Positions 15,413 to 34,860 of a stretch of 64,000 nucleotides of DNA are shown here, one piece after another. A program made the translations under genes and the position numbers. Origin of the DNA: Chloroflexota bacterium (GTDB taxonomy: Bacteria; Chloroflexota; Limnocylindria; Limnocylindrales; CSP1-4); assembly GCA_040752335.1 (NCBI GenBank), contig JBFMEV010000008.1:3272-67271 (forward strand), read 5' to 3'. How positions within the stretch are numbered: position 1 is the stretch's first letter; every line of letters starts with the position of its first letter. Below the pieces are notes generated by a model, which saw only the letters and a program-made list of their open reading frames with translations, made no database searches and was not told the origin of the DNA.

Positions 15413-15472
15413 ATTCGAGCTCGATGCCGCCCTCCCGGGGGCGGCGTCTCTGCACTCGGAGGATCTGCAGCC

Positions 15473-16078
15473 ATGACCACCACCACCGCCGGATCGGCCG
15501 GGGCGTCCCCGGGCCTGCTGATCGACACTCGCTGGCGCACTCGCGACATCCTCGTGACCGCCGTCATCGGCGTCGCCTTCGGCGTCGTCTTCTGGGCCTG
15601 GGGAGCCGCGGCCTGGCCGGCGCTCGCTCCGCTCAACGGCGCCGTCCCCGTGTTCCAGGACCTCTTCTACGCCGTCTGGCTCGTGCCGGCCGTGCTCGCT
15701 CCGTTGATCGTCCGCAAGCCGGGCGCGGCCCTCTTCGCCGAGATGGTGGCTGCCGGCCTGTCCGCGCTCCTCGGCAGCCAGTGGGGGGTCGACACGCTCC
15801 TGTCCGGGTTCGTCCAGGGAGCGGCCGCCGAGCTCGTCTTCGCCTTCACCCTCTACCGCGCCTGGACGCTGCCGGTCCTCGCCGTGGCCGCTGTCGCCAG
15901 CGCCGCCGCGGCCTGGATTCACGACTGGGTCTTCTACTACCCGGAGGTCGCGATCGAGATCCAGGTCGCGCGCGGCATCGCGATGGCGATCTCGGCGGTC
16001 GTGATCGTGGCATTCGGGTCGCAGGCGCTCGCTCGATCGCTCCGACGGGCAGGCGTCCTGGAAGGGTTCCCCGACTGA
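15473..16078 (+). CDS. ykoE: ECF transporter S (substrate-capture) component, YkoE-like (HMP/thiamine precursor)
   Basis: About 6-TM small membrane protein. GGAGGA lies 8 nt upstream of the ATG. It is followed by a duplicated ATPase and a T component, and preceded by the TPP riboswitch. Confidence 0.8.
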   Translation: MTTTTAGSAGASPGLLIDTRWRTRDILVTAVIGVAFGVVFWAWGAAAWPALAPLNGAVPVFQDLFYAVWLVPAVLAPLIVRKPGAALFAEMVAAGLSALLGSQWGVDTLLSGFVQGAAAELVFAFTLYRAWTLPVLAVAAVASAAAAWIHDWVFYYPEVAIEIQVARGIAMAISAVVIVAFGSQALARSLRRAGVLEGFPD

Positions 16079-17622
16079 CCGCCGCGCCCGGGGCGGGGGG
16101 ACCGCTTCCGCTCGCCGCCGACGGCGTCCGCTTCCGCTACGCCGGGGCGGATCGGCCTGCCCTCGACGGGATCGACCTCCGGCTCGACGCGGGCGGCGTC
16201 CTCCTCGTCGTGGGGCCGTCCGGGTCCGGCAAGAGCACGCTGGGGAAGGCGGTCGCGGGCCTCGTCCCGCGGGACGTCCCCGGGGAGTGGGGGGGCTCGC
16301 TGCGCGTCGGTGGCCTGGAGGTCGCGTCGGCGGAGCCGGCCGAGGTCGCCGCTCGCGTCGGGATCCTGTTCCAGGATCCGGCCAGCCAGCTGGTCATGGA
16401 CCGAGCGGCCGACGACGTCGCGTTCGGCCTCGAGAACCGGGCCTGGCCGCTCGAGGCGATGCGGAGGCGGGTGCCGGAAGCGCTCGGGGCCGTGGGCCTC
16501 GGCGGCTTCGGGCGGCGGCGCGGGACGCGCCTCTCGGGTGGCGAGCAGCAGCGACTCGCGCTGGCCGGCGTGGAGGCTCCCTCGCCCGCCGTCCTGGTCC
16601 TCGACGAGCCGACGGCGAACCTGGATCCGGCGGGCGCCGACGCGGTGTTCAGGCGCATCGCCGAGCTCCGGTCCGCGCGGCGGACGACGATCGTCCTCGT
16701 CGAGCATCGAGCCGACCTCGCCTGGCCCCTCGCCGACATGATCCTCGCCCTCGACGAACGGGGCTCGCCGATCGCTCTCGAGCCCCCAGCTCGAATGGCC
16801 AGCCGGCACGGCAGGCGCCTCGCCGGTGAGGGGATCTGGCTGCCGGCCGACTGGACGGCGCCCGCCCGTCCCGCGGACGGCGCCCCGCCGGGCAGCGCCG
16901 CCGACGGCCGGCCAATCGTCGAGGTCCATCACGCCCGGTTCAGCTACGCATGCGGCGTCGAGCCCGCCGTCCGCGACGTCGAGCTCGAGATCGGGGCCGG
17001 CGAGCGGGTGGCGATCGTCGGACCGAATGGCAGCGGCAAGTCGACGCTCCTTCGGCTCGTCGGAGGCCTCCTCCGTCCCTCGGCGGGATCCATCGAGGTC
17101 GGCGGCGCGGATCCCCGGCGCCTGCCGGCGCCGCTCCTCGCCCGGCTCGTCGGGCTGGTCTTCCAGGACCCCGAGCTGGGGTTCCTCGGGGAGACCGTGG
17201 CCGGTGAGATCGGCCTCGGTCTCGACCAGGCTCGGGCCTCGGCGGCGGGCGAGCTCCTCGAGCGGCTGGGCATGCCGCTCGAGGCCTTCGGCGAGCGGAG
17301 TCCGTACCGCCTCTCGGGCGGCGAGCAGCGTCGCCTGTCCGTCGCCACCGCCCTGGCGAGGCGGCCGCGGGTCCTCCTCCTCGACGAGCCCACGTTCGGC
17401 CAGGACCGGCGCGGCTGGGAGGCCCTCGCCTCGATCCTCGATGAGCTCGTGGAGGAGGGGACCGCGGTCCTGGCCGCGACCCACGACGCGCGGTTCGCCG
17501 CGCGCGTCGCGGGCCGCCGCATCCAGATGGCCGACGGCTGGGTCGTCGCCGACGACGGCCCAGGAGCCGACGACGACCCCATCACCGGCACGCACGAGCT
17601 CCTCCCCGCGGCAGGCGCCTGA
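16075..17622 (+). CDS. ykoD: ECF transporter duplicated ATPase (two ABC domains), YkoD-like; start uncertain
   Basis: Two Walker A motifs (GPSGSGKST, GPNGSGKST). Two signature motifs (LSGGEQQRLALA, LSGGEQRRLSVA). No ATG/GTG/TTG lies in frame just upstream of the first domain. The CTG at 16075 overlaps the ykoE stop (CTGA). Confidence 0.85.
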   Translation: MTAAPGAGGPLPLAADGVRFRYAGADRPALDGIDLRLDAGGVLLVVGPSGSGKSTLGKAVAGLVPRDVPGEWGGSLRVGGLEVASAEPAEVAARVGILFQDPASQLVMDRAADDVAFGLENRAWPLEAMRRRVPEALGAVGLGGFGRRRGTRLSGGEQQRLALAGVEAPSPAVLVLDEPTANLDPAGADAVFRRIAELRSARRTTIVLVEHRADLAWPLADMILALDERGSPIALEPPARMASRHGRRLAGEGIWLPADWTAPARPADGAPPGSAADGRPIVEVHHARFSYACGVEPAVRDVELEIGAGERVAIVGPNGSGKSTLLRLVGGLLRPSAGSIEVGGADPRRLPAPLLARLVGLVFQDPELGFLGETVAGEIGLGLDQARASAAGELLERLGMPLEAFGERSPYRLSGGEQRRLSVATALARRPRVLLLDEPTFGQDRRGWEALASILDELVEEGTAVLAATHDARFAARVAGRRIQMADGWVVADDGPGADDDPITGTHELLPAAGA

Positions 17623-18374
17623 TGCTGACCCCGATCGAGCTCAGCGATGCCCAGGCCTCGAGCCTCCTCGGCCGGACCAGCCCGCTCGTGAAGCTGGCCC
17701 TGGCAATCGCCTGGCTCGTCGGGCTGGCCGTCATCGGCGAGCCCGGCCCGCCGCTCCTCCTGGCCGCCCTGGCCGTCGCCGCCGGGCTTTCGATCGGGCG
17801 GGTGCCGCCGGGCAACCTCGCCCGCGGCCTGGCCCCGCTCGTCCTCGCGGCGACCTCGATCGCCCTCGCCAACCTCCTCTGGGCGGGCGCCAACACGGAT
17901 CCAGCCGCCACCGAGCTCGCGAGGCTGGGCCCCTTCCGGATCACCCGCGAGGCGGCCGAGGCCGCCGGGGCCCTGGCATCACGTGTCCTCGCGATCGTGG
18001 CGGTCGGCGCCGTCTTCGCCCAGACGACCGACCCGACCCGGCTGGTCGATGCGCTCGTCCAGCAGGCTCGCGTCCCGGAGCGGTTCGCCTACGGCGCGCT
18101 CGCCGCGTACCAGGCCGTCCCGGGCCTGGCCGAGGACCTCGTCACGCTCCGCCAGGCGCGCCGGATCCGGGGGCTCCGGGGCTGGCACCCGAGGCTGCTC
18201 CTGGGCCTGCTGGTCCGGGCCATCCGCCATGCCGACCAGCTCGCCCTGGCGATGGATGCCCGGGCCTTCGGGAGCGGTCCCCGGACGACATTCCGGCCCA
18301 TCCGCTGGGGCTGGCCCGATCTCGTGGTCGGGATCGGTGGCCTGGCGGTTCTCGCCCTTGCCCTCCGGATCTGA
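17622..18374 (+). CDS. ykoC: ECF transporter T (transmembrane energy-coupling) component, CbiQ family
   Basis: Polytopic membrane protein with the conserved …LRQARRIRG…ALAMDARAF… (Ala-Arg-Gly-type) coupling helices. ATGA overlap with ykoD. Confidence 0.82.
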   Translation: MLTPIELSDAQASSLLGRTSPLVKLALAIAWLVGLAVIGEPGPPLLLAALAVAAGLSIGRVPPGNLARGLAPLVLAATSIALANLLWAGANTDPAATELARLGPFRITREAAEAAGALASRVLAIVAVGAVFAQTTDPTRLVDALVQQARVPERFAYGALAAYQAVPGLAEDLVTLRQARRIRGLRGWHPRLLLGLLVRAIRHADQLALAMDARAFGSGPRTTFRPIRWGWPDLVVGIGGLAVLALALRI

Positions 18375-20859: not shown

Positions 20860-22842
20860 TCAGGCGATCCCGACGATGCGGGCGATGACGCCGCCCGCGG
20901 CGAGGGCGAGCGCCAGCGAACCGAGGGTGATCGTCAGGGCCGGGCGGCGGCCCAGCTCGGCGATGAGGGCGGCGAGCGTCGCGGCGCAGGGGATCGAGAT
21001 CGAGGTCACGATCGCGAAGACGAAGACCTGGCCGGCGGTCATGAATGTGCCGAGGTCGCCCGCCCCGAGGCCGTACTCGACGACGGCGAGGGCAATCAAC
21101 AGCTGCAGCGCCAGCTCCTTGCGCAGGAAGCCGAAGGCGAACGCGACGCCGGCGATCGGCGGCAGGCCCAGCCAGCCCTCGGTCAGCGGGCCGAGGGCCG
21201 TCGAGATCGGGGCCCAGGCGCCGGTCTCCCAGGCCAGCCCGACGACGAACGAGCCGATGAGCATGATCGGTGCGGCGGTGAGGACGAAGCCCCGGAAGCG
21301 GGCCCAGGCCTTCTGGGCGACGTGGCCTGCGACGGGCACCCGGAGGCGGGCCATCTCCAGGACCAGGCTCGGCTGACGGCCCGGGACGAGCTTGTTGGCA
21401 CCGACGCCGGCCGCGATCGCCACCGCCGCCGTGACGACGAAGGCCGCCAGGGCCACGCCTGGACCGGCCAGCGGCACGAGCGCCGCGATGACGACGGCGC
21501 TCCGGGCGGAGCAGGGCGTGAGGGTGATGAGGAACGAGGCGAGGATCCGCTCGCGGCGGGTCCGCAGGATCCGGGTCCCGTACAGGGCCGGGACGTTGCA
21601 GCCGGCGGCGGCCAGCAGGGGCACGGCGGCCCGGCCGGGCAGCCCCAACGCGTTGAAGACGCGGTCGAGGAGGACGGCCGCGCTGGTCAGGTAGCCCGAA
21701 TCCTCGAGGGCGGCGAGGAGGACATAGAAGGTCAGGATGTACGGGATCCCGACGGAGATCAGGGCCAGGAGACCACCGTCCACGGCCCACAGGATCGAGC
21801 TCGCCAGGCTCGGGATGGGGATGATCGCGGTGACGACCGCGGTCAGGGCCGGCGAGACAGCGGCGGCCCAGGCATTGCCGAGGATCGCCGCCAGCCAGCC
21901 GCCGACGACGACCATCAGCCCGAACGTGGCGAGGGTCACGGCCACGAACGCCGGGATGCCGGGGACCGGCTCGGTGGCCAGGCGCTCGAGCCGGTCGCGG
22001 AGCGGCGGCCGCACAGCCCGCAGGCGCTCGACCTGGCGGCTCCACGACCCGGCGAGATCGGCCCGCGCGGCGTCGAGCTCGGTGCCGAGGACGATCGTCG
22101 CCGCGCCCCGCGGGTTGGCAACGCCGGCCTCGATGAGGCGGCCGAAGCCCGTCGCGTCGAGGACCGCGGCACCGACCGAGCGGAGCCCGGGAACTCGGGC
22201 CGAGAGCTCGGCCGCCTCGGCCCCGACCCGGGCCTCCAGCGACGGCGGGTAGATCGGTGCCGGCAGGGTCGACGACGGCGCGCTGAGGCCCAGCCGGACG
22301 TCCCGCCGTCGCGTCGCCAGGCGGATCGCGTCGGCCAGGGCCGCCTGGACCCCCTCGCCGGAGCGTCCGTTGGTCACGTGGACCGGCGCCAGGAGGAGCT
22401 GGGAGAGGCGGCCCGTGTCGAGCTCGATGCCGTGACGGGCGGCCTCGTCGGACAGGTTGGCGGCGACGACGATCGGCAGACCCAGGTCGCGACAGGCGAG
22501 AGCCAGGGGCAGGTGCCGGGCCAGGTCGCCGGCGTCGACCAGGACGAGCAGCGCGTCCGGCCGCGCCGTCTCAAGGTGCTGCCAGAAGGGCCCGCTGCCG
22601 GCCGGGCGGTCCAGGAGCGAGCGCGTGCCCGGCAGGTCGACGAGGAGCGCCTCCCGGCCGTCGGCGCAGACCCGGCGGCGTTCGAGGAAGACGGTCGTTC
22701 CGGGGGCGTTGGCGGTCTCGGCGAAGCGCCCGCTGCCGCGGGCAAGGAAGGTCGACTTGCCGACGTTCGGGCGGCCGACGAGGGCCACGACCGGCAGGTC
22801 GCCGGTCCGATCCGGGGCGGCCGCTCCGTGGTGGTGCATCAT
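20860..22842 (-). CDS. feoB: Ferrous iron transporter FeoB
   Basis: The N-terminal G domain has GRPNVGKST, DLPG and NLSD. The C-terminal part is a polytopic gate domain. The ATGATG start at 22842 overlaps the stop of the upstream cgoX-feoA ORF. Confidence 0.9.
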   Translation of the reverse strand: MMHHHGAAAPDRTGDLPVVALVGRPNVGKSTFLARGSGRFAETANAPGTTVFLERRRVCADGREALLVDLPGTRSLLDRPAGSGPFWQHLETARPDALLVLVDAGDLARHLPLALACRDLGLPIVVAANLSDEAARHGIELDTGRLSQLLLAPVHVTNGRSGEGVQAALADAIRLATRRRDVRLGLSAPSSTLPAPIYPPSLEARVGAEAAELSARVPGLRSVGAAVLDATGFGRLIEAGVANPRGAATIVLGTELDAARADLAGSWSRQVERLRAVRPPLRDRLERLATEPVPGIPAFVAVTLATFGLMVVVGGWLAAILGNAWAAAVSPALTAVVTAIIPIPSLASSILWAVDGGLLALISVGIPYILTFYVLLAALEDSGYLTSAAVLLDRVFNALGLPGRAAVPLLAAAGCNVPALYGTRILRTRRERILASFLITLTPCSARSAVVIAALVPLAGPGVALAAFVVTAAVAIAAGVGANKLVPGRQPSLVLEMARLRVPVAGHVAQKAWARFRGFVLTAAPIMLIGSFVVGLAWETGAWAPISTALGPLTEGWLGLPPIAGVAFAFGFLRKELALQLLIALAVVEYGLGAGDLGTFMTAGQVFVFAIVTSISIPCAATLAALIAELGRRPALTITLGSLALALAAGGVIARIVGIA

Positions 22843-24557
22843 CGGCCGGCTGCGGCTGCCGGCTCGGGGGCGGGCTCCACGGCGACAGTTGAGGCGACGG
22901 ATCGCGCAACGGCGACCCTGGCCCGCCCCACCCCGACGACGAGCGGCCCGCCGAGGGGCGCCCGCGAGGCGACGGCGACGATCGTGCCCGGAACGACGCC
23001 CTCGAGGGCCAGCTCGGCCGCGTGGTCGGCGGCGACCGAGACGACCCGGGCTCCGGCGCCGATCGGGAGGGCGTCCAGGCTCGTGGAGCCGGCGCCAACC
23101 GCGGCGGTGGGCGCGGCTGCGTCGGCGGCCCCGGCGGGCGCTTCCGCCGGCGCCCCGCCGGACAGCAGCAGGGCGATCGAATCGGCAGCCGCCCGGCCCT
23201 GGGCGATGCAATCGGGCAGGCCGACCCCGCGATAGGCACCGCCGGCGATCCGGAGCGCCGGGTAGGGTGCCAGGGCGGCCTCGGCGGCGGCCACCCGCTC
23301 CAGGTGGCCAACGGTGTAGTGGGGCATCGCAGCGGGATAGCGGGCGACGCGGGTGAGCAGCGGCTCGCCGCGGATGCCGACCGTCCCGGCGACGTCGCGG
23401 TGGGCGGCCGCCACGAGCCCGGGATCGTCGAGGTCGTGGGCCCCGGTCCGCCGATCCCCGATGAAGGCCCGGACGAGGAGGGTCCCCTCGGGCGCCCGGC
23501 CGGCCCACTTCCGGGAGCTGAACGTGGCGGCGCTGATCGTCAGCGGCTCGTCATCGGCGACGAGGAACCCGTGGCCGGCGAGGTCGTCGGGTAGCTGGTC
23601 GTCGCCGTAGGCCAGGTTCACCACGGCCGTCGCACCATGCGGGATCGACCGGATCTGGCCGGCCGCATCGGGCGCGCCTCTCTCGAGGAGATCGGCCGTC
23701 ACCCGGGCCGGGGTGGCCAGGATCGTGGCCTCGGGGGCCAGCCGTTCGCCGCCGCAGAAGCGAACCCGGACGCGCGAGCCGTCGAACTCGAGGTCCTCGA
23801 GGAGACACTGGGTCCGAATCCCGACGTGGGGCATCCCGTGGAGGGCCTCGGCGAGCGCATCGACGAGCTGCTGGGTGCCGCCGGCGAGGGTCACGAACGG
23901 GGACGGCGACGGCCCGTCATGTCGACCGTCCGCCGCGGCCTCCTTCCGCGCCCGGGCCTCGGCGAGGGCGGCGAGAAGGAGCGATCGATGGCGGCGCTCC
24001 GATTCCCGGAGCTGGGGGACGACCGCATCGAGGCTCAGCTCGTCGATCGGAGTGCCATAGACCCCGCCGATGAGCGGGCCAGCCAGCCGATCGACGAGGG
24101 CCGACCCCAGGCGCCGCCGGAGGAACGGCCCGACGGCCACGTCGCCGTCGCTCCCGTCGCGCGGCAGGAGGAGGTCCAGGCCCATCCGCGCCTTGGCCAG
24201 CGGCGAGAAGAGGTCGCTCGTCAGGAACGGCCGGAGCTTCGTGGGGAGGACGAGGCCCATGCCGTCGGGGAAGCGGCGGAAGCGGCCGCCGGCTCGGATG
24301 AAGACGATCCGCGGCTCTTGCGGCCGGACGACCGCGTCGCCGAGGCCCAGCTCGCGGATGAGGGCCAGGCCCGCCGGTCGGTAGCTCACGAACGAATCCG
24401 GGCCGTGCTCGATGACGAAGCCGTCGACCTTTTCGGTCCGGATCTTGCCGCCCAGGCGGCGCGAGCCCTCGACGAGGAGGGTCGGGATGCCGGCCTTGCC
24501 CAGCGCATAGGCGCTCATCAGGCCGGTGATGCCGCCGCCGACGACGAGGACTGTCAT
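22839..24557 (-). CDS. cgoX: Coproporphyrinogen/protoporphyrinogen oxidase (HemY/CgoX) with a C-terminal FeoA domain fused in frame
   Basis: 572 codons with no internal stop. The N-terminal 465 aa are a HemY-type FAD oxidase ([13 protein letters not shown]…MPHYTVGH…GGAYRGVGLPDCI). An Ala/Pro linker follows. The last part is FeoA-like (…LPIGAGARVVSV…GVVPGTIVAV…PLVVGVGRARVAVARSVASTV). Confidence 0.85.
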   Translation of the reverse strand: MTVLVVGGGITGLMSAYALGKAGIPTLLVEGSRRLGGKIRTEKVDGFVIEHGPDSFVSYRPAGLALIRELGLGDAVVRPQEPRIVFIRAGGRFRRFPDGMGLVLPTKLRPFLTSDLFSPLAKARMGLDLLLPRDGSDGDVAVGPFLRRRLGSALVDRLAGPLIGGVYGTPIDELSLDAVVPQLRESERRHRSLLLAALAEARARKEAAADGRHDGPSPSPFVTLAGGTQQLVDALAEALHGMPHVGIRTQCLLEDLEFDGSRVRVRFCGGERLAPEATILATPARVTADLLERGAPDAAGQIRSIPHGATAVVNLAYGDDQLPDDLAGHGFLVADDEPLTISAATFSSRKWAGRAPEGTLLVRAFIGDRRTGAHDLDDPGLVAAAHRDVAGTVGIRGEPLLTRVARYPAAMPHYTVGHLERVAAAEAALAPYPALRIAGGAYRGVGLPDCIAQGRAAADSIALLLSGGAPAEAPAGAADAAAPTAAVGAGSTSLDALPIGAGARVVSVAADHAAELALEGVVPGTIVAVASRAPLGGPLVVGVGRARVAVARSVASTVAVEPAPEPAAAAGR

Positions 24558-24571
24558 GGCCGTACGCTTGC

Positions 24572-25771
24572 TCAGGCCCGCGCGGCGGCCGCGACCGGCG
24601 GGACGAACAGGCAGAGCGGGTCCGATTCGAAGGCGTCGCCGGTCCAGGCGAAGGCCCGGGCCCGGGAGCCGCCACAGATCGCGGCGTATTCGCAACGGCC
24701 GCAACGGCCCTTGAAGTTCTCCGGGTCCCGCAGGCCGGTGAAGACCGGGTGCTCGCGGTAGAGGGTCACGATGTCGTCGGTCCGGACGTTGCCGGTCGGG
24801 AGCGGCAGGAAACCGGACGGGAAGACGAAGCCGTTGTTGGCGACGAACATGATCCCGTTGCCGTCGCGGACCCCGAACCCGCGCCCGACGGATGTCGCGG
24901 CGATCGCGGCGTCGTCGAGTCCCTCGGCCTGCATCCGCTTGACCGCCACGCGCCGGTAGTGGGTCGCCTCGGTCGTCTTGATCGCGAACGGGGCGTCCTT
25001 CGACAGGCCGTACAGCCAGTGATTCAGGCGCTCCGCCTCCACGGGCGTGACCTCCTTTAGGGCCGAGCCGCGCCCGACCGAGATGAGGAAGAACAGGCTC
25101 CAGCGGATCACCCCGATCTCGACCATCAGGTCGTAGATCGCCGGCAGGTCCTCGAGGGTCTCGTCGGTGATGAGGGTGTTGACCTGGAGCGGCAACCCGA
25201 TCTCGTGGGTCCACCCCGCCGCCCTGAGGGTTGCCTCGAATGTCCCGGGAACGCCCCGGAAGCCGTCGTGCCGCTCGGGCGTTGAGCCGTCGAGCGACAG
25301 CGACATCGTCTGGATCCCGGCCGCCTTGAGGGCCCGCAGCCGTTCCGGCGTCAGCTCGGGGGTCGCCGCGGGGGCCAGCGAGGCGCCGATGCCACGGGCC
25401 GTAGCGCCTTCGACGAGGATCTCGAGGTCCGGCCGGCGCAGGGGATCGCCGCCGGTGAAGACGACGTGTGGATAGGGCTGCCCGAAGCCGGTGATCGCGT
25501 CGAGGAGCAGGAATCCCTCCTCGGTCGTTAGCTCGTCGGGGGCGCGCTCGGGGATGGCCTCGGCCCGGCAGTGGCGGCAGGCGAGGCCGCACGAGGTCGT
25601 CGTCTCCCAGTAGACGAGCATCGGGGCGCGGTTGAAGAGGTAGCCCTCCGGCCGGACCGACCCCACGCCGCCGATCGCACCGGGATGGCCGCCGGGATGG
25701 CCGCCGGGACGGCCTCCCGGGCCCGAGGGACTGCCGCCGGGATGCCCGGCGGGGGGCATGACCATGGTCAT
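24572..25771 (-). CDS. Radical SAM/SPASM-domain protein, AhbD/NirJ-like
   Basis: The CxxxCxxC motif is in TSCGLACRHC. The C-terminal SPASM Cys cluster is in GRCGRCEYAAICGG. The N-terminus is Gly/His/Pro-rich and low-complexity (GHPGG repeats). AGGAG lies 8 nt upstream of the ATG at 25771. That ATG overlaps the cpfC stop (ATGA). Confidence 0.85.
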   Translation of the reverse strand: MTMVMPPAGHPGGSPSGPGGRPGGHPGGHPGAIGGVGSVRPEGYLFNRAPMLVYWETTTSCGLACRHCRAEAIPERAPDELTTEEGFLLLDAITGFGQPYPHVVFTGGDPLRRPDLEILVEGATARGIGASLAPAATPELTPERLRALKAAGIQTMSLSLDGSTPERHDGFRGVPGTFEATLRAAGWTHEIGLPLQVNTLITDETLEDLPAIYDLMVEIGVIRWSLFFLISVGRGSALKEVTPVEAERLNHWLYGLSKDAPFAIKTTEATHYRRVAVKRMQAEGLDDAAIAATSVGRGFGVRDGNGIMFVANNGFVFPSGFLPLPTGNVRTDDIVTLYREHPVFTGLRDPENFKGRCGRCEYAAICGGSRARAFAWTGDAFESDPLCLFVPPVAAAARA

Positions 25772-26724
25772 CGGACGGCTCCTGAAAGGTCGTGGGTGGA
25801 GGTGGTGGCAAGGGCTCGGGTCGCCACGTCGGCCAGGCCGCCAATGAAGGTCGGGTCGTCGTTCATGGAGCGGGCCCGCTCGAGCCGGATGCCGGCCGCC
25901 TCGGCGACCGCCCGGGCCTCGATGTCGATGTCGTACAGGATCTCGAGATGGTCGGCCACGAAGCCGACAGGCGACACGACGACCTCGCGGACACCCTCGG
26001 CCGCGAGCCGCCGGAGCTCGTCGCGGAGGTCCGGGCCCAGCCATGGCTCGGCGGTCCGGCCGGCGCTCTGGAAGCACTGCTCGTACTCGGCGCAGCCGAG
26101 CCGGTCGGCGACCAGCCTGGCCGTCGCCGCGATCTCGTCGGGGTAGCGATCGCCCTCCGCGACGACCCGGGTCGGGAGGCTGTGGGCCGTGAACACGAGG
26201 CGGACGACGGCCGGCATCTCGAAGCGCTCGAGGGCCTCGCGGGTCGCCCGGGCGAGGGCCTCGATGAAGCGCGGCTCGTCGTGCCACGACTCGACGAAGA
26301 TCGCGGTGGGCATCAGCCGGTCGCCCCCGGCCGCTGCCGCCAGCCCGGCCTCGACCGCCCGCCGGTAGCCGGCGCCGTTGGACGAGCGCTGCGGCGCCAG
26401 GGCGATCGCCACGAACCGCTCGATCCCGTCGCGGGCCATCGCCTCCACGACGGTCGCGATCCGCGGCTCGATGTGGCGCATCCCGGCGTACACCGGCATC
26501 GCGCGGCCCCGCCGCGCCAGCTCGCCCTCGAGGGCCGCGCGCTGGCGCTCCACGACCCCCGACAGGGGCGAGGCGCCGCCGATCGCGCGGTAGCGGCCCA
26601 GGAGCTCCTCGAGCAGCTCCGGCGGCGGCGGGCTGCCGCGCCGGATGTCGGTGTAGTAGGCGGGCACCTCGTCGAGGGAGCGGGGGCCGCCGTAGGCCAT
26701 GAGCAGGACGGCGTCGCGGGGCAT
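25768..26724 (-). CDS. cpfC: Ferrochelatase (coproporphyrin ferrochelatase type)
   Basis: LLMAYGGP, FTAHSLP and …VGFVADHLEILYDIDIE… GGAGG lies upstream of the start. TGATG junction with hemE. Confidence 0.9.
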   Translation of the reverse strand: MPRDAVLLMAYGGPRSLDEVPAYYTDIRRGSPPPPELLEELLGRYRAIGGASPLSGVVERQRAALEGELARRGRAMPVYAGMRHIEPRIATVVEAMARDGIERFVAIALAPQRSSNGAGYRRAVEAGLAAAAGGDRLMPTAIFVESWHDEPRFIEALARATREALERFEMPAVVRLVFTAHSLPTRVVAEGDRYPDEIAATARLVADRLGCAEYEQCFQSAGRTAEPWLGPDLRDELRRLAAEGVREVVVSPVGFVADHLEILYDIDIEARAVAEAAGIRLERARSMNDDPTFIGGLADVATRALATTSTHDLSGAVR

Positions 26725-27812
26725 CACTGACCTCCGGGTCGGTACGCGTGGACGAGGTCGACGAGGCGGCGGAGGACGTCCGGGTCGGTCTCGGGGATGA
26801 CGCCGTGGCCCAGGTTGAAGACGTGACCGGGGCGCCCGGCGGCGAGATCGAGGATCCAGCGCGCGGCGCCTGCGACGTCGACCCACGGCCCGAGGAGCAG
26901 CGCCGGATCGAGGTTCCCCTGCACCGCCCGGTCGCCGACGACGGCCCAGCCCTCGTCGAGGGCGATCCGCCAGTCGAGGCCGATGACGTCGCCGCCGGCC
27001 TGGGCCTGGAGCCGCAGGAGCCCGGCCGTGTCGACCCCGAAGTGGGTCGAGGGCACACCGAGGCCGGCGATGCCCTCGAAGAGCCGGGTCATCCACGGCG
27101 CGACCGAGCGCCGGTAGTCGAGCGGCGACAGGCCGCCGACCCACGAATCGAAGACCTGGACGGCCTGGGCCCCGCTCTCGACCTGGGCCGTGAGGTAGGC
27201 GATCGTGGCGTCCACAAGCCGACTCATGAGCGCGTCCCACGTCGCCGGCTCGGCATGCATGAGCAGCCGCGTCCTCGGGAATTCGCGCGACGGCCCGCCG
27301 TCGACGAGGTAGCAGGCGAGGGTGAAGGGCGCCCCGGCGAAGCCGATGAGCGGCACCGGGCTCTCGGCCCTGACGAGGCGGATCGCCTCCAGCAGCGGAC
27401 CGACCGCCTCCACGGGATCGAACGGCCGGAGCCGCTCGACGTCGTCCGCGGAGGCGATCGGCCGCTCGATCACCGGGCCGACACCTGGCGCGATCTCGAA
27501 GCTCACGCCGAGCCCGGCGAGGGGCGTCGTGATGTCTGCGAAAAGGATGGCCGCGTCGACGCCGAGGCGGCGCACGGGCTGGAGGGTGACCTCGGCGCAC
27601 AGGGCCGGGTCGCGGGTGATCTCGACGAGCGAGGCCCGCTCGCGGATCGCCCGGAACTCGGGCAGCGACCGACCGGCCTGGCGCATGAACCAGACCGGGG
27701 TGACGTCGACCGGCAGGCGCAGCGCCGCCCGCAGATAGCGATCCGTGCGCGGCTCGGCCACGGCCACGGGGAGCTCGTCGGGGGTCGCGGCGGCGACGGC
27801 GCCGGCGGTCAT
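26724..27812 (-). CDS. hemE: Uroporphyrinogen decarboxylase
   Basis: PVWFMRQAGRSLPEF, …ILFADI…, …FDSWVG… and NLGHGV. Confidence 0.92.
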   Translation of the reverse strand: MTAGAVAAATPDELPVAVAEPRTDRYLRAALRLPVDVTPVWFMRQAGRSLPEFRAIRERASLVEITRDPALCAEVTLQPVRRLGVDAAILFADITTPLAGLGVSFEIAPGVGPVIERPIASADDVERLRPFDPVEAVGPLLEAIRLVRAESPVPLIGFAGAPFTLACYLVDGGPSREFPRTRLLMHAEPATWDALMSRLVDATIAYLTAQVESGAQAVQVFDSWVGGLSPLDYRRSVAPWMTRLFEGIAGLGVPSTHFGVDTAGLLRLQAQAGGDVIGLDWRIALDEGWAVVGDRAVQGNLDPALLLGPWVDVAGAARWILDLAAGRPGHVFNLGHGVIPETDPDVLRRLVDLVHAYRPGGQ

Positions 27813-29113
27813 GCCAGGAAGGCCTTGCGGGCCGCGGCGAGCGTCTCCTCGACGAGCTCGCGGTCGTGGGCCAGGGAGATGAACCAGGCCTCGAACTGCG
27901 AGGGCGGCAGGAGGATGCCCGCGTCGAGCATCGCCCCGAAGAAGCGGGCGTAGGCGGCCCGATCGGAGGCCATCGCGGCGTCGGACGTGGTGGGGACCCC
28001 CTCCCGGAAGAAGACCGTCAGGAGCGAGCCAACGCGGGCGATCCCGACCGTCCGGCCGGCGGCCGCCGCTGCCGCCCGGAGTCCCCCCTCCAGCTCCGCT
28101 CCGGTGGCCTCGAGGCGGTCGTACGCGGCGTCGTTTAGCAGCCCCAGCGTCGCTGCGCCGGCGGCCATCGAGAGGGGGTGGCCCGACAGCGTGCCGGCCT
28201 GGTACACGGGTCCGTCCGGGGCGATGCGGGCCATGAGGTCGCGTCGCCCGCCGTACGCCCCCACGGGCATGCCGCCGCCGACGATCTTGCCGAGGACGGT
28301 CAGCTCCGGCCGGATCCCGTAGCGAGCCTGGGCGCCGCCACGGGCCACGCGGAAGCCGGTGATGACCTCGTCGAAGACGAGCAGCGCGCCGTGGGTCTCG
28401 GTCACCGCCCGAAGCCCCTCGAGGAAGCCCGGGGCCGGGGCGATGACCCCGACGTTCGCCGCAACCGGCTCCACGATCACGGCCGCGATCCGGCCGGGAT
28501 GGGCCTCGAACGCCGCCCGGACGCCGGCGAGGTCGTTGATCGGGACGACGATCGTCGCGGCCGCGACCTGGGCCGGCACGCCGGCGCTGCCTGGGATTGC
28601 CAGCGTCGCGACCCCGGAGCCGGCGTCCACGAGGAGACCGTCGGAGTGGCCGTGATAGCCGCCGGCGAACTTCATCACCAGGTCGCGGCCGGTCGCGCCG
28701 CGGGCCAGGCGGAGGGCGCTCATCGCCGCCTCCGTCCCGGACGAGGTGAAGCGCAGCTTCTCCAGCGATGGCATCGCGGCACGGATCGTCTCGCCCAGGA
28801 CGACCTCCGACGGCGACGTCGCCCCCAGGGCAAAGCCCTCGAGGGCCGCTGCGCGGACGGCGTCGACGACGGCGGGATGGGCATGGCCGACGATGGCCGG
28901 ACCCCACGCGCCGATGTAGTCGATGTACCAGCGCCCGTCTGCGTCGCGGACCCGGGCGCCGGCGCCGCCGGCCAGGACGACGGGCGGGCGGCCGACCGAA
29001 CGGAAGGCCCGTACGGGGCTGTTGACGCCGCCCGGGAAGAGATCCTCGGCCCGCCGGACGATGGTCTCCTGGCGGGTCGGAGCGGAGGTGCCCGCGGGGC
29101 CGGCGGCGGTCAT
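27809..29113 (-). CDS. hemL: Glutamate-1-semialdehyde 2,1-aminomutase
   Basis: …[11 protein letters not shown]…, …FDEVITGFR…, and the PLP-binding lysine in [14 protein letters not shown] overlaps at both ends. Confidence 0.93.
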
Positions 29114-30168
29114 CGGGCCTGGCCCTCCCGGAGCCACGTGGCGAGATCCGCGGCGGCGTAGCTGATGACGATGTCGGCGCCCGCCCGGACGATCGAGGTC
29201 AGGGCCTCCAGGTGCGTCCGTCGCCGGTCGATCCAGCCCAGCTGCGCGGCCGCCTCGATCTGGGCGTACTCGCCGCTGACCTGGTAGGCCGCGATCGGCA
29301 GCTCGAAACGGGCGCGGGCGGCGGCCAGGATGTCGAGCGACGGCATGGCCGGCTTCACGAGCAGGGCGTCGGCGCCCTCGTCCACGTCGATCGCCATCTC
29401 GCGCATCGCCTCGCGGAAGTTCGCCGGGTCCATCTGGTAGCCGCGCCGATCGCCGAAGGCCGGGGCGGAATCGGCAGCCTCGCGGAACGGGCCGTAGAAG
29501 GCCGAGGCCGTCTTGGCGGGATAGGCGAGGATCGCGGTCCCCGTCTCGCCGGCGGCATCGAGGCCGGCCCTGATCGCCGCGACCTGGCCGTCCATCATCG
29601 CGCTGGGAGCGACGATGTCGGCGCCCGCCTGGGCCTGCGAGACGGCGGTGGCGGCCAGGAGCTCGATGGCCGCGTCGTTGTCGACGCTGCCGTCCGGCAG
29701 GACGGGGCCGCAGTGGCCGTGGGCCGTGTACTCGCACAGGCAGGTGTCGGCGATGAGAACGAGGTCCGGGTCGGCGTCGCGGAGGCGCCGGAGGGTCTCC
29801 TGGACGATGCCGTCCTCGATCCAGGCGCCGGATCCCTCGGCGTCCTTCGAAGCCGGCAGGCCGAACAGGATGACCCCGCCGATGCCGAGCTCCACGAAGC
29901 GAGCGACGTCGATGGCCGCCTCATCGGGCGAGACCCGGGCCACGCCCGGGAGCGACGAGATCGGGCTGCGGACGCCGTGTCCGGGCTGGACGAAGATCGG
30001 CGCCACCAGCTGGCGGGGATCCACCCGCGTCTCGCGGACGAGCGCCCGCAGGGCGGCGGTCCGGCGGGTCCGCCGGAGACGATGGGCCGGGTCGACGGGC
30101 GCCGCCGGCGCCGGACGGTCCAGGCCTGCGGCGGCGGCCGCGCTCGCGCGGTCGATGAGGACGTTCAC
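29110..30168 (-). CDS. hemB: Porphobilinogen synthase (Zn-type)
   Basis: The Cys-rich Zn site is [14 protein letters not shown]. …[11 protein letters not shown]… The active-site Lys is in LLVKPA. The GTG start overlaps the hemCD stop (GTGA). Confidence 0.92.
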
Positions 30169-31985
30169 GCGGGATCCTCCTGGCGCGGTGTTCGCGACGG
30201 GCCGCCGGAGCGGCCGGGGAGCGAGGTTCGAACGAGGTCGGCGAGCGCGGCCGGCTCGGGTGCCGGGGCGACGAGGACAAGCTCGAAGCCGGCGCTCCGG
30301 GCGGCCTCCGCAGTCGACTCGCCGATGCAGCAGGCGATCGTGCGCCGGGCGACCGCCGGGTGGGCGCGGCCGAGGAGCCGGGTCAGGCCGCGGACGGCGG
30401 ATGGGCTTGCGAAAACGATCGCGGCAGGCCCGCCGGCCGCGAACACCGCGCGGAAGGCCTCCCGCGAGCCTTCCGGTCCCTCGATCGTGAGGTAGGCGAC
30501 GACGGCATCGACGCGGGCGCCGCGAGCCTCGAGATCCGCGACGGTCCGCGAGTCGGCGATGTCGGCGCGGGGCAGGAAGACGATCTCGCCACGCTCGATC
30601 GGCAGCTCCGCGGCGAGCGACGCCGCGTCGGCGTGCGAGGGGACGAACGTGACTTCGACACCGCGCGCCTCCAGGGCCGCCGCCGTGGCGGTCCCCACGG
30701 CCGCCCAGCGAAGGCCCGAGAGATCGACCCCCACACGAGCGGCAGCTTCGAGGATCGGCCCGACGGCGTTGGCGCTCGTGACAGCGATCCAGCTCGCCCG
30801 GGTCGCACGGACGACCGCACGATCGAGGTCCCCGCCAGCCTCCACCGGCCGGATCTCGATGGTCGGGATCGTCGCGGCGTCGAGGTCGAGGGCGTCGAGT
30901 GTCGCGACGAGGCGCTCTGCCTCGGCGGCCGGGCGCGTCACGAGGACGAGCGGTCGAGACGGCTGGCGGGGCGCCGCGCCCGGAACGGTCGCACCGGCCG
31001 CGACGCCGGCTGCGACGCTCGCCGCGAGCTCGGCGGTCAGTCGGGAGGCAAGCTCGGCGGCGAGCTCCAGCCGGTCGGCGATCGGGCCTCGGACCTCACC
31101 TCGCACCAGGGCCGGACGACCGTCCTCGGAGAGCGTCGGCTCGGTCGTGCCTGCCGTCGCGCCGCGAAGGACGATCTCGTCGCCCTCGACCGTCGCCAGG
31201 GCGCCGATCGGGGCTCGGCAACCGCCGCCGGTCGCCCGCAGGAACTCCCGCTCGGCCTCGACCGCGGCACGGGTCCCGGGATCGTCGAGCCGGGCCACGA
31301 TGGCCCGGGTGACCGGATCGTCGGTCCGGCACTGGACGGCGAGGGCCCCCTGGCCCGCCGCCGGCGGGCACAGCTCGGCCGAAACGATCTCGCCGATCCG
31401 ATCGGCCCGGTCCAGGCGAACCAGACCGGCGACCGCGAGGACGACTGCGTCGGTGGCGCCCTCGTCGAGCCGGCGGAGCCGGGTGTCGACGTTGCCGTGG
31501 AGCGGGTGGACGTTGAGATCCGGGCGGACGGCCCGCAGGAACGCCGAGCGGCGCGGGCTGTCGGTCCCGACCCGGGCCCCGTCGGGCAGGGCCGCGAGCG
31601 TCATCCCCGGCTTGCGCCCGACGACCGCATCGCGAGGGTCGGCCCGTCGCGGGTAGGCGGCGATCGTGAGCCGCGCAGGCTCTGCCGTCGGCACGTCCTT
31701 GGCGCTGTGGACGGCGAGATCGATGGTCCCGTCGAGGAGGCCGGCCTGGAGGGCGCCCACGAACGCGCCCTCACCCCAGGTCGTGTCAGGTGGGCGGTCG
31801 TCGCCGAGGGTCCGGACGGTCACCAGCTCGACCTCAACGCCGAGCGCCCGGAGGGCCTCGGCGACGGTCGACGACTGGGCGACGGCGAGGGCGCTTCCGC
31901 GGGTGCCGAGGCGCAGCGGCGGCGGCGCGATCCCGGCGAACTCGCCGGCAGTCGGGGCCGCGATCGCGGGACGCGAGGCGATCAC
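30165..31985 (-). CDS. hemC: Fused hydroxymethylbilane synthase / uroporphyrinogen-III synthase
   Basis: The N-terminal part is HemC ([14 protein letters not shown] … GNVDTRL … [10 protein letters not shown]). An Ala-rich linker follows. The last roughly 250 aa are HemD-like (…LVLVTRPA…[10 protein letters not shown]…IVFASPSAV…). The GTG at 31985 lies 2 nt after the hemA stop. Confidence 0.85.
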
Positions 31986-31987
31986 CG

Positions 31988-33169
31988 TCAGACTCCGAAG
32001 AGCTCGCGAGCGGCCCGCTCCAGGTCCGAGGACGGGTCCTCGTGCAGGGCGGCCAGGGGCGCGTGGAGGATCCCGGCGACGAGCCGGTGGCTCATCTGCT
32101 CGACGAGCGCGAGATCCTCCGGCGTCAGGTCGGTCAGCCGCCGGCGGAGCCACTCGACCTCGGCCGTTCGGTGTTGCTCGGCCTGCTCGACGACCGCCTG
32201 GATCGCCGGGACAGCGTCGCGCGACCGGAGCCACTGGCAGTAGTCGCGGCCGGCCTGGGCGATGAGTGTCTCGAGCTTTCGGCGGACCCGATCGCCCGGT
32301 CCATGGTCGTCGTCGGCGAGGTCGTCGACCGACACGAACCGCCCGCCGAGGCCATCCTGGAGACGGACCGGCACGGCTGGCGGAGAGGACAGGTCGACGA
32401 CCGGCGTCCGGGCCCTGACGAGCTTCGCCGCGGCCTCGGGTTCGAGTGGCCACTCGCCACCGATCGCGACGACGACGCCCTCGGGCGGCTCCTCGCCGAG
32501 CGTCCCGAACGTCGCGGTGGCGCCGCCGACCTCGCGGGCCAGGGCCGCGGCGCGGTCCTCGCCCCGGTTCGAGACGACAACCCGGCAGCCGCGCCGCTGG
32601 GCCGCGAACGCCGCCAGTCGGCCCATCCGGCCGACCCCCACGACCAGGATCCGGCGGCCATCGAGCGGGCCGATCTCGCCGCTGATCCGATCGAGCGCCA
32701 CGTCGGCCAGCGAGCGAGGCGCGCCGTTGAACCAGCCATGGGCGATCCGGCCGGCGTGGAGCGCGGCCTGGAACAGGCGGTCCAGGACGGGGTCGAGGGC
32801 CCGCTCGGCCCGGCGCTCGGCGATCGTCTGGCGGAGCTGGTGGAGGATCTGGGTCTCGCCGATGACGGCGCTGTCGAGACCGCAGGCGACCGAGATGAGG
32901 TGGCGCGCCGCGGCGACGTCCTGTAGCCGGACGGTGCCCTCGGGGATGGCCGGCAGCTCCTGCCGGAAGGCCGCCGGTGCCAGGTACAGCTCGACCCGAT
33001 GGCAGGTGTGGACGACGACGTGGCCCGGGCCTTCGCCGAGGTCGGCGAGCCGTCCGGCGAACGCCTCGCGCCGCCGGCTGGGCACGGTCCGGGCGTGGGC
33101 GACGAGGGCCGTGACGAAGGTCGCCTGGTCACCGTCGATCTCGGACCCCCGGGCCAGCTCGACGATCAC
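31988..33169 (-). CDS. hemA: Glutamyl-tRNA reductase
   Basis: HTCHRVELY holds the catalytic Cys. …DSAVIGETQILHQ… …ILVVGVGRMG… is the NADPH site. The GTG start overlaps the regulator stop. Confidence 0.9.
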   Translation of the reverse strand: MIVELARGSEIDGDQATFVTALVAHARTVPSRRREAFAGRLADLGEGPGHVVVHTCHRVELYLAPAAFRQELPAIPEGTVRLQDVAAARHLISVACGLDSAVIGETQILHQLRQTIAERRAERALDPVLDRLFQAALHAGRIAHGWFNGAPRSLADVALDRISGEIGPLDGRRILVVGVGRMGRLAAFAAQRRGCRVVVSNRGEDRAAALAREVGGATATFGTLGEEPPEGVVVAIGGEWPLEPEAAAKLVRARTPVVDLSSPPAVPVRLQDGLGGRFVSVDDLADDDHGPGDRVRRKLETLIAQAGRDYCQWLRSRDAVPAIQAVVEQAEQHRTAEVEWLRRRLTDLTPEDLALVEQMSHRLVAGILHAPLAALHEDPSSDLERAARELFGV

Positions 33170-33942
33170 GCCGATCCCTCCACTGCCCGGGAGGCGGCCG
33201 GGGTCGCGGTCCCATCACCGGCCGGCGCGGCAATGCGGGGCTTCGGGCGGCCGCTCGCCGTCGTGCGCCTGGCGGCCGCCGGGCTCGGGTCGTCGTAGCC
33301 ACGCAGGAGCTCCAGGAGCAGGCGGTCGAAGACTCGTGAGGCCGCGAGCATCAGGTCGATGGCCTCGTCCGTGTCGAGGCGGCGGCGATGTGCGATCCGG
33401 CTGAGCTCGTGCAGGAACGGCATCCGGAAGCGGAGGAACGTGTCGGTCAGGGCGTCCCGTGCCAGCTCGTGACCCCGCGCCATGGCGCCGTACCGTGCCG
33501 CGGACTCGAGCGCTCCGGCCAGCGCCGCCTCGCCCTCCTCGGGGGCGGCCGCATCGAGATAGCCCAGGACACCGGTGAGGATCCCCCGTCCCGGCTCGCG
33601 GAAGGCTTCCCGCTCAGTCTCATCGAGTGACCCGACGACGGCGTCGGGCCGGTTCTCGGCCGAGAGCTCGCGAGACAGCTCGCGGCGGTACTGCCGGACG
33701 ATGCGTTCAGGGGTCTCGCCGAGCTCATGGAGCCGTCGGCGACGCTGTGGGCCCTGGGGCAGGAGCTTCAGGATCGTCGCCCGGGAAAAGCGACGGTGGC
33801 CGCCGGGCGTGACGAACGCCTCGACGTCGCCGGCCTCGGTCCAGCGGCGGAGCGTCGCCGGGGAGACCCCGACGAGATCGCTTGCCTCGTGGATCGTCAG
33901 CCAGGTCCGGGGGGCACCACGTCGGTCCCGGGGCGATCCCAT
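33166..33942 (-). CDS. MerR/excisionase-type HTH (HTH_17-like) regulator with an uncharacterised helical C-terminal domain; first gene of the hem operon
   Basis: WLTIHEASDLVGVSPATLRRWTEAGDVEAFVTPGGHRRF is the helix-turn-helix. The remaining roughly 190 aa have no motif I recognise. Confidence 0.7.
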   Translation of the reverse strand: MGSPRDRRGAPRTWLTIHEASDLVGVSPATLRRWTEAGDVEAFVTPGGHRRFSRATILKLLPQGPQRRRRLHELGETPERIVRQYRRELSRELSAENRPDAVVGSLDETEREAFREPGRGILTGVLGYLDAAAPEEGEAALAGALESAARYGAMARGHELARDALTDTFLRFRMPFLHELSRIAHRRRLDTDEAIDLMLAASRVFDRLLLELLRGYDDPSPAAARRTTASGRPKPRIAAPAGDGTATPAASRAVEGSA

Positions 33943-34179: not shown

Positions 34180-34860
34180 ATGAACCAGTACGTCCAGGCG
34201 ATGGTCCTCGGCCTCGACCCGACGTGGCGCCGGCTCGACGGCGCCACCCGGGCCGCGGGCGCCGCCGCGTTCGCCGAGGTCATCGAGGGCCGCAACGACG
34301 TCGTCACCGCGACGTACGAGATGATCGGGCGGCGGGCCGCAGCGGACATCCTGGTCTGGCGCCTCGCGCCGAGCGTCGACGTCCTCGACGACGAAGCGGC
34401 GCGCCTCCTCCGGACCGGCGTCGGGAGGTGGCTGTCGGTCCGCGAGTCGTTCCTCGGGCGGATCAGTGAATCGCAGTACGTCGCCCGTCCCACGAGCCAG
34501 GAGCAGTCGCTCTTCGCCGGTGACCGCGCCCGGTACCTCATCGTCTATCCGTTCACGAAATCGGTCGAGTGGTACCTGCTCCCGCGCGAGGTCCGCCAGG
34601 GCTCGATGAACGAGCACATGCGCGTCGGGCGGGCGTATCCGCAGGTGCGCCAGCTGCTGGCCTACTCGTTCGGCCTCGATGACCATGACTTCCTGGTGGC
34701 CTACGAGACCGATGACCTGCCCGCGTTCTCCGAGCTCGTCCGGGAGCTCCGCGCCACTGACGCTCGCCGCTCGACCGTCCGTGACACGCCGATCCTGCTC
34801 GGGGTTCACCGGCCGATGTCGGAGATCCTGGAGCTCCTTGGCGCCGCCGATCCGGGCTGA
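34180..34860 (+). CDS. chdC: Coproheme decarboxylase (HemQ/ChdC, chlorite-dismutase family)
   Basis: …YLIVYPFTKSVEWYLL…MNEHMRVGRAYPQVRQLLAYSFGLDDHDFLVAYETDDL…FSELVRELR… matches the HemQ family pattern. Confidence 0.85.
   Translation: MNQYVQAMVLGLDPTWRRLDGATRAAGAAAFAEVIEGRNDVVTATYEMIGRRAAADILVWRLAPSVDVLDDEAARLLRTGVGRWLSVRESFLGRISESQYVARPTSQEQSLFAGDRARYLIVYPFTKSVEWYLLPREVRQGSMNEHMRVGRAYPQVRQLLAYSFGLDDHDFLVAYETDDLPAFSELVRELRATDARRSTVRDTPILLGVHRPMSEILELLGAADPG

Follow-up and report, generated by a model that had tools for sequence, protein, structure and literature searches.

The 64,000-nucleotide window analyzed here, from contig JBFMEV010000008.1 of a Chloroflexota bacterium, carries an AhbD-like radical S-adenosylmethionine (SAM) gene within a coproporphyrin-dependent (CPD) heme operon. 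This gene probably encodes an O2-independent, SAM-dependent coproheme decarboxylase of the AhbD type that has a single auxiliary cluster (AuxII), belongs to the TIGR04053 family, is supplied by CpfC, and acts in parallel to ChdC. The observations that carry this proposal are family membership, the pattern of cysteines and ligand positions, the place of the gene in the operon, the conserved synteny, and its homology to a gene tested genetically; we infer substrate, chemistry, and physiological role, and the entire mechanism from characterized AhbD. The original prediction for this locus had offered an O2-independent bypass of either the ChdC step or the CgoX step. The former is the best-supported function because of the identity to HVO_2144 of Haloferax volcanii, the AuxII-only signature, and the CPD linkage across phyla. 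The latter found no support, since the archaeal homolog works in an organism reported to lack CgoX and CpfC and the chemistry of the family is propionate-to-vinyl decarboxylation. The gene in question is the following.

24572–25771, minus strand: AhbD-like radical SAM gene (TIGR04053 family), 399 aa; identified by translation, cysteine list, NCBIfam, Pfam Radical_SAM, and AlphaFold2 (AF2) model.

Stop codons occur throughout the plus-strand translation of the same coordinates, which rules out that strand. With a G+C content of 70–77% in the window, long spurious open reading frames (ORFs) are abundant. The G+C content along the radical SAM ORF (399 codons) is 0.93 at third codon positions (GC3) and 0.53 at second codon positions (GC2), and this GC3 value supports the ORF as coding. 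Its minus-strand translation contains both of the motifs first noted for it, CGLACRHC and CGRCEYAAICGG. The closest homologs, with up to 91% identity, are found in Candidatus Limnocylindrales and other Chloroflexota metagenome-assembled genomes (MAGs). On this evidence the host is a Limnocylindria-type Chloroflexota, and an actinomycete origin, which the high G+C content had suggested, was rejected.

For family assignment, hidden Markov models (HMMs) of AhbD, NirJ, and related enzymes were compared. The protein passes NCBIfam TIGR04053 (radical SAM/SPASM, "BA_1875 family"), with 457.4 bits against a cutoff of 395, an E-value of 3.9e-137, and a match to profile positions 3–366 of 366. The second-best NCBIfam model is that of AhbD (TIGR04545, heme b synthase), with 291.7 bits over the full length and a cutoff of 500 that the protein fails. 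NirJ2 (184 bits, cutoff 500), AhbC (141 bits, cutoff 650), NirJ1 (140 bits, cutoff 650), and NirJ (138 bits, cutoff 515) also fail, and the peptide maturase models PqqE, MftC, and StsB (104, 96, and 91 bits, respectively) are all far under their cutoffs. The earlier placement in the AhbD/NirJ radical SAM group was therefore right. In Pfam, the only match is Radical_SAM (PF04055; 71.5 bits, cutoff 29.5). The TIGR04053-type family is very large, with at least 7993 of 8000 scored candidates at E ≤ 1e-20, and its members appear in databases as "TIGR04053 family," "BA_1875 family," or "AdoMet-dependent heme synthase." The closest database homologs of the window protein carry the NCBI name TIGR04053, and close homologs are labeled "AdoMet-dependent heme synthase" by JGI.

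The cysteine pattern places the protein more narrowly. It has exactly seven cysteines (C61, C65, C68, C357, C360, C366, and C387). The first three form the radical SAM cluster motif CGLACRHC (C61-x3-C65-x2-C68), and each is kept in at least 93% of the 118 near-full-length representatives (34–58% identity) that were aligned. The four C-terminal cysteines, three of which (C357/C360/C366) are carried by CGRCEYAAICGG, are arranged as C357-x2-C360-x5-C366-x20-C387, corresponding to the AuxII motif CX2CX5CX20C. The AhbD of Methanosarcina barkeri has eight C-terminal cysteines (CX20-33CX17CX36-37CX2CX5CX2CX17-35C) and two auxiliary clusters. In non-methanogenic archaeal AhbDs, only CX2CX5CX20-38C (AuxII) remains, and Glu, Ser, and Ser are found at three of the AuxI cysteine positions, the fourth being variable (Fix et al., 2023, PMC10452713). 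Among the 118 representatives, a 13-member cluster has cysteines at positions 268, 301, 319, and 369 of the window protein, and the resulting register (268-x32-301-x17-319-x37-357-x2-360-x5-366-x2-369-x17-387) is an exact fit to the published AhbD SPASM motif. The window protein itself has E268, V301, S319, and S369 at these AuxI ligand positions, i.e., no AuxI cysteine, and with E268, S319, and S369 it matches the AuxII-only signature (CX2CX5CX20-38C plus Glu/Ser/Ser). As judged from its sequence, it belongs to the AuxII-only enzymes and carries the Glu/x/Ser/Ser signature of the archaeal type. A full SPASM domain would have seven or eight cysteines in the C-terminal half (AuxI and AuxII). 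Because the protein has only four C-terminal cysteines, with E/V/S/S at the AuxI positions, it is not a full SPASM enzyme. The "C-terminal SPASM cluster" of the original prediction was wrong in this sense, and the cysteine count and alignment indicate the single auxiliary cluster AuxII.

Identity between the window protein and the full-SPASM representatives is about 38%. The five nearest to the query (P0173, P0208, P0213, P0254, and P0262) score 317–470 bits with TIGR04545 (all below 500) and 335–417 bits with TIGR04053 (cutoff 395). Two of the five score higher on TIGR04053 than on TIGR04545, and P0173 and P0213 are above the TIGR04053 cutoff despite their AuxI cysteines. Because these representatives score between both models, TIGR04053 and TIGR04545 describe a continuum, the subclasses of which are not cleanly separated by these models.

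Haloarchaeal and Thermoplasmata proteins that are 45–46% identical to the window protein also carry the NCBI name TIGR04053. A search with a Natrinema family member recovered H. volcanii proteins, including one (P0406) whose gene neighbors encode a nirK-type multicopper oxidase, a small Pfam "HVO_2142" protein, a DUF2249 protein, a cupredoxin, and NorB. Because these neighbors match the published surroundings of ahbD (PMC5746218), P0406 was identified as HVO_2144 (ahbD). The protein shares 49% identity with the window protein over 353 aa (E-value 6e-116) and has the same pass/fail pattern, with 501 bits for TIGR04053 and 341 bits for TIGR04545. Deletion of HVO_2144 leaves aerobic growth intact and strongly reduces denitrifying and dimethyl sulfoxide (DMSO)-respiring growth. 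Protoheme fully restores the DMSO-respiring growth of this mutant and restores its denitrifying growth only partly, with DMSO added; deletion of the ChdC-type pitA impairs aerobic growth (PMC5746218). In addition, H. volcanii is reported to be without CgoX and CpfC. On the strength of this match, the uncharacterized family TIGR04053 includes a genetically supported anaerobic heme-synthesis gene, the haloarchaeal ahbD.

The linkage to heme genes was surveyed with one genome per GTDB species and an 8-sequence alignment as the query, and the resulting 80 loci span many phyla. When the heme proteins of the window served as tblastn queries against these loci, 33 of the 80 had CPD or common heme genes no more than 10 kb away from the radical SAM gene, with at least four phyla represented (Chloroflexota, Actinomycetota, Armatimonadota, and Acidobacteriota, among others). 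CgoX was detected in 31 loci, CpfC in 22, HemE in 19, and ChdC in 15. The Chloroflexota loci have the order cpfC-rSAM-cgoX (rSAM, radical SAM gene), which is the same as in the window. The order in Actinomycetota (Propionibacteriaceae, Micropruina, and others) is hemA-hemE-rSAM-cgoX-chdC-cpfC-hemC. The gene lies within a full heme cluster including chdC in Chthonomonas, forms a cgoX-rSAM pair in some Acidobacteriota, and directly follows chdC in four loci (Anaerolineae MAG L022, HR23 L026, unclassified bacterium L023, and "Fervidifonticultor" L070). In a rough neighbor-joining tree, with approximate rooting only, the window protein belongs to a Chloroflexota clade with an Actinomycetota clade as its sister. 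All members of both clades are heme-linked, and over the whole tree such linkage appears repeatedly, in no fewer than four clades. Taken together, the CPD linkage is conserved over Chloroflexota, Actinomycetota, Armatimonadota, and some Acidobacteriota.

If the enzyme works as characterized AhbD does, its N-terminal [4Fe-4S] cluster (C61/C65/C68) would reductively cleave SAM, and the resulting 5'-deoxyadenosyl radical would take hydrogen from the propionates of rings A and B of Fe-coproporphyrin III (coproheme). Oxidative decarboxylation would then yield the two vinyl groups of heme b, and the single C-terminal [4Fe-4S] cluster (C357/C360/C366/C387) would carry the electron away. The coproheme would be supplied by CpfC, the gene for which lies directly upstream and shares translational coupling with the radical SAM gene. 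With both this enzyme and ChdC, the present Limnocylindria-type Chloroflexota may complete the CPD pathway when O2 or peroxide is scarce.

Ten minus-strand genes are closely spaced here in one orientation, in the order HTH-hemA-hemCD-hemB-hemL-hemE-cpfC-rSAM-cgoX::feoA-feoB (HTH, helix-turn-helix), and the radical SAM gene is number eight. The other genes of this operon, and chdC beside it, are as follows.

33166–33942, minus strand: HTH protein (HTH_17/MerR/BldC-like), 258 aa; Pfam HTH_17 and MerR, NCBIfam BldC-type HTH below cutoff.
31988–33169, minus strand: hemA, glutamyl-tRNA reductase (divergent); NF000744 171 bits and TIGR01035 150 bits, below cutoff, full-length.
30165–31985, minus strand: hemC-hemD fusion (hydroxymethylbilane synthase and uroporphyrinogen-III synthase), 606 aa; TIGR00212 279 bits at aa 24–282.
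29110–30168, minus strand: hemB, porphobilinogen synthase; NF006762 449 bits, cutoff 297.
27809–29113, minus strand: hemL, glutamate-1-semialdehyde aminomutase; TIGR00713 536 bits, cutoff 527.
26724–27812, minus strand: hemE, uroporphyrinogen decarboxylase; TIGR01464 375 bits, cutoff 303.
25768–26724, minus strand: cpfC/hemH, ferrochelatase; Pfam Ferrochelatase 270 bits, TIGR00109 219 bits, cutoff 125.
22839–24557, minus strand: cgoX/hemY (aa 1–462) with a C-terminal FeoA domain (aa 493–562); Pfam Amino_oxidase and FeoA, TIGR00562 230 bits, cutoff 98.
20860–22842, minus strand: feoB-like ferrous iron transporter, last operon gene; Pfam FeoB_N, Gate, and FeoB_C, TIGR00437 290 bits, cutoff 316.
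34180–34860, plus strand: chdC/hemQ, H2O2-dependent coproheme decarboxylase; Pfam Chlor_dismutase 172 bits, best PDB matches 9mhr and 6xub.

These assignments agree with the original prediction that the radical SAM gene sits between cpfC (directly upstream) and cgoX (directly downstream), with chdC encoded divergently. Translational coupling, which had been claimed on both sides, holds upstream, where the TGA stop of cpfC overlaps the radical SAM ATG in the sequence ATGA at 25768–25771. It does not hold downstream, where a 14-nt spacer separates the radical SAM stop from the cgoX ATG at 24557. The description as a CPD heme operon was correct in that the CPD genes are present, and its scope proved wider, covering the full pathway from hemA as well as feoA and feoB. 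The divergent chdC is encoded 8.4 kb from the radical SAM gene, its product matches PDB entries that are both coproheme decarboxylases, and it is 63% identical to an in-cluster homolog in locus L003. No ahbA, ahbB, or ahbC was found among the window genes scanned (the scan covered part of the 64 kb), and a siroheme-route reading of the locus was rejected on this basis. No nir genes were found in the scanned parts of the window either.

Several points weigh against the proposed coproheme decarboxylase. With 292 bits, the window protein stays under the curated threshold (500 bits) of TIGR04545, the "heme b synthase" model. More than half of the surveyed loci, mostly from Acidobacteriota, have no heme gene within 10 kb, and their neighbors are unrelated (prolyl oligopeptidase, 1-deoxy-D-xylulose 5-phosphate (DXP) synthase, methyltransferase, HIT protein, polyferredoxin, Na/H exchanger, and CBS protein). 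The commonest immediate neighbor is cgoX, not chdC or cpfC. For H. volcanii, which uses the siroheme route, the evidence consists of a growth phenotype rather than enzymology. The AuxII-only AhbD class is stated to be without biochemical study (Fix et al., 2023, PMC10452713), and a 2024 paper describes what replaces ChdC anaerobically in Bacillaceae as "yet unknown" (PMC10965808). Moreover, an anaerobic route would also require a CgoX activity that is independent of O2, and the scanned parts of the window yielded none. For the first of these points, because the genetically tested H. volcanii AhbD also fails TIGR04545 (341 bits), the cutoff appears to mark a narrow subgroup rather than a function, and failing it is no argument against AhbD function. 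Likewise, cgoX being the commonest neighbor does not by itself show which step the radical SAM enzyme serves.

One alternative is a HemN/CgdH-like decarboxylase of coproporphyrinogen III or metal-free coproporphyrin III, which would act before CgoX/HemY and ferrochelatase in a protoporphyrin-type branch. The chemistry would be identical, with propionate converted to vinyl on the same two rings, and such a role would suit the frequency of cgoX as the commonest immediate neighbor (31 of 80 loci), the several Acidobacteriota that have the cgoX-rSAM pair only, and the lack of a biochemical study of the substrate range of AuxII-only enzymes (PMC10452713). However, all characterized relatives use the iron chelate coproheme (PMC13564367, PMC10452713), the gene is translationally coupled to the ferrochelatase gene and, in four loci, to chdC, and HVO_2144 functions in an organism reported to be without CgoX and CpfC, which makes this alternative unlikely. 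An O2-independent substitute for CgoX that converts coproporphyrinogen III to coproporphyrin III, the other option of the original prediction, is very unlikely. The radical SAM gene adjoins cgoX in many genomes, but we know of no radical SAM enzyme of this clade that performs such a six-electron ring oxidation. CgoX needs O2, and an anaerobic partner would be useful (PMC13564367); however, the O2-independent enzyme that is known is CgoN, which is unrelated (PMC10965808), homology points to AhbD, and the archaeal ortholog works in an organism reported to lack CgoX.

It also seems quite unlikely that the enzyme performs some other tetrapyrrole modification, such as a NirJ-like step to heme d1 or another modified heme, or serves as a heme chaperone or insertion factor. 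NirJ2, NirJ1, NirJ, and AhbC are the next-closest families, HVO_2144 lies among denitrification genes, and many family members are not heme-linked. However, the NirJ-type models reach only 138–184 bits, compared with 457 bits for TIGR04053, the scanned parts of the window have neither nir genes nor ahbA, ahbB, or ahbC, and protoheme itself rescues the H. volcanii phenotype. As for a SPASM/Twitch maturase of ribosomally synthesized and post-translationally modified peptides (RiPPs) that is merely located in the operon, the predicted structure may at first seem to favor it. The nearest solved folds to the AF2 model (54 sequences; mean predicted local distance difference test (pLDDT) score 86, predicted template modeling (pTM) score 0.85) are PqqE, SuiB, SkfB, CteB, and anSME, i.e., peptide maturases and PqqE. 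A PDB sequence search returned only PqqE, BlsE, and SkfB, and no AhbD structure exists. Because an AhbD structure is lacking in the PDB, the fold ranking is not function-discriminating, and the search confirms only a modeled SPASM/Twitch radical SAM fold. SuiB is also the top structural neighbor of the M. barkeri AhbD model (PMC10452713). Furthermore, RiPP maturase models score about 100 bits or less, far under their cutoffs, and neither a precursor-like small ORF nor a recurring non-heme partner was found in the 80 surveyed loci. A peptide maturase was rejected on the HMM scores and the lack of a precursor gene, and is extremely improbable.

Two observations concern neighbors of family members elsewhere. 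In a heme-free Acidobacteriota locus (L021), a Fer4_5/polyferredoxin-type gene (11078–12217, plus strand) directly follows the radical SAM gene, and its product could be an electron acceptor for the radical SAM enzyme. In the H. volcanii locus (L081), a small gene with the Pfam match "rSAM_target_put" (11590–11910, plus strand) is located about 4.4 kb downstream of HVO_2144, beyond norB, and is probably unrelated to ahbD.

The Gly/His/Pro tract that had been noted at the N-terminus is present, and forms part of the following feature.

25637–25771, minus strand: N-terminal extension (aa 1–45), GHPG-type tandem repeats followed by the conserved IGGVGSVRPEGY; identified by the repeat, homologs, and pLDDT.

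The DNA behind the GHPG units (aa 7–31) is a 12-nt tandem repeat with about 6.4 copies (25680–25753, minus strand), and residues 1–33 are predicted to be disordered (pLDDT below 50). Because no other place in the six reading frames of the window has three or more HPG in a span of 30 residues, the tract is more than a chance occurrence. In close homologs, the number of GHPG-type units ranges from one to six and a conserved IGxVGSV(R/K)PxGY comes after them, and Actinomycetota homologs have HGIG(S/A)V(K/R)P(D/E)GW with one to three HP units. Many Acidobacteriota family members have short His-rich tails with no GHPG repeat. The tract is a real, lineage-variable, His-rich tail that is predicted to be disordered, and its variation in copy number is consistent with repeat slippage. 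It may plausibly bind metal or heme. A bolder suggestion, which we regard as improbable, is that the tail serves as a hand-off arm for heme, coproheme, or Fe(II) and, together with CgoX-FeoA and FeoB, forms a membrane-associated terminal "heme metabolon." In such an arrangement, Fe(II) imported by FeoB would be channeled to CpfC, and the coproheme would be handed straight to the AhbD-like enzyme. If true, this organization would be undescribed for the CPD pathway.

The heme operon includes a module for ferrous-iron uptake, with the CgoX-FeoA fusion followed by feoB, whose start overlaps the cgoX-feoA stop according to the coordinates. The same cgoX-feoA-feoB order is found in locus L018. In loci L004, L005, and L007, feoA-feoB lies some 8.5 kb upstream of the radical SAM gene and is encoded on the other strand. 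A literature search for a link between Feo and heme operons found no paper describing it. At the other end of the operon, the HTH protein has an N-terminal HTH and a C-terminal domain of about 190 aa without a family assignment. The stop of its gene overlaps the hemA start, and the gene faces chdC over a 237-bp intergenic region. The protein is probably the first gene product or the regulator of the heme operon, and possibly a dedicated regulator. The hemA position is kept in related loci. Uroporphyrinogen-III synthase models match aa 343–584 of the hemC-hemD fusion, below their cutoffs, as its hemD part. Adjacent hemC and hemD are also found in this order in related Chloroflexota loci, and the window has both as one 606-aa protein. 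A few kb beyond feoB, at 15464–18374 (plus strand), is an energy-coupling factor (ECF)/cobalt-type transporter module (ABC_cobalt, double ABC ATPase, and CbiQ). Elsewhere in the window are genes for glycerol metabolism, for a 2-oxoacid dehydrogenase complex, and for lipoyl synthase.

The bypass hypothesis has already been published (Dailey et al., 2015, as cited in reviews; Layer, 2022) as a biochemically unproven prediction, and is rediscovered here. According to one review, ahbD co-localizes with hemY/hemH/hemQ (PMC10548856; Dailey et al., 2015, as cited in reviews), and according to another, CPD Gram-positives have AhbD without other Ahb enzymes (PMC13564367). Reviews suggest that an AhbD-like radical SAM enzyme "might" replace ChdC anaerobically. 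Literature searches found no paper on TIGR04053 and nothing useful on Cutibacterium/Propionibacterium operons with this gene. The locus leaves the published picture of how CPD bacteria complete heme without O2 or H2O2 unchanged. What it adds is a clean example, in which the gene is flanked by cpfC and cgoX and shares translational coupling with the former. Smaller additions are an explicit connection of TIGR04053 with HVO_2144, the occurrence of the AuxII-only signature within CPD clusters of bacteria, the N-terminal GHPG tail, and the Feo module that is fused to cgoX and follows it. These results support renaming TIGR04053 members in CPD contexts as probable heme synthases. Good candidates for the biochemistry of AuxII-only enzymes are the Propionibacteriaceae-type clusters, which are the most experimentally accessible.

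Compared with known systems, the window protein shares with H. volcanii AhbD a seven-cysteine layout (radical SAM cluster and AuxII only), the NCBIfam pattern, and 49% identity, and a ChdC-type enzyme is present in the same organism in both cases. The archaeal gene differs in that it lies among denitrification genes, belongs to the siroheme route, and has no GHPG repeat tail, whereas the window gene has a full CPD operon around it. The biochemically characterized AhbDs of M. barkeri and Desulfovibrio vulgaris (TIGR04545) share CX3CX2C and the C-terminal CX2CX5C...C AuxII motif with the window protein, which aligns with their model over the full length (292 bits) and is proposed to carry out the same reaction (coproheme to heme b). 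However, it lacks all four AuxI cysteines and is below the TIGR04545 cutoff. With the AhbD genes beside hemY/hemH/hemQ in CPD Gram-positives, the locus shares the idea of an AhbD homolog in a CPD cluster as the anaerobic counterpart of ChdC. It differs from those loci in its host, which is a Limnocylindria-like Chloroflexota rather than a Firmicute or an Actinobacterium, as well as in the order cpfC-rSAM-cgoX, the N-terminal GHPG repeat, and the Feo module in the operon. Finally, ChdC/HemQ, which is encoded in the same region, and the radical SAM enzyme would be expected to share one net reaction, but ChdC/HemQ has an unrelated fold (Chlor_dismutase family) and an oxidant-dependent mechanism.

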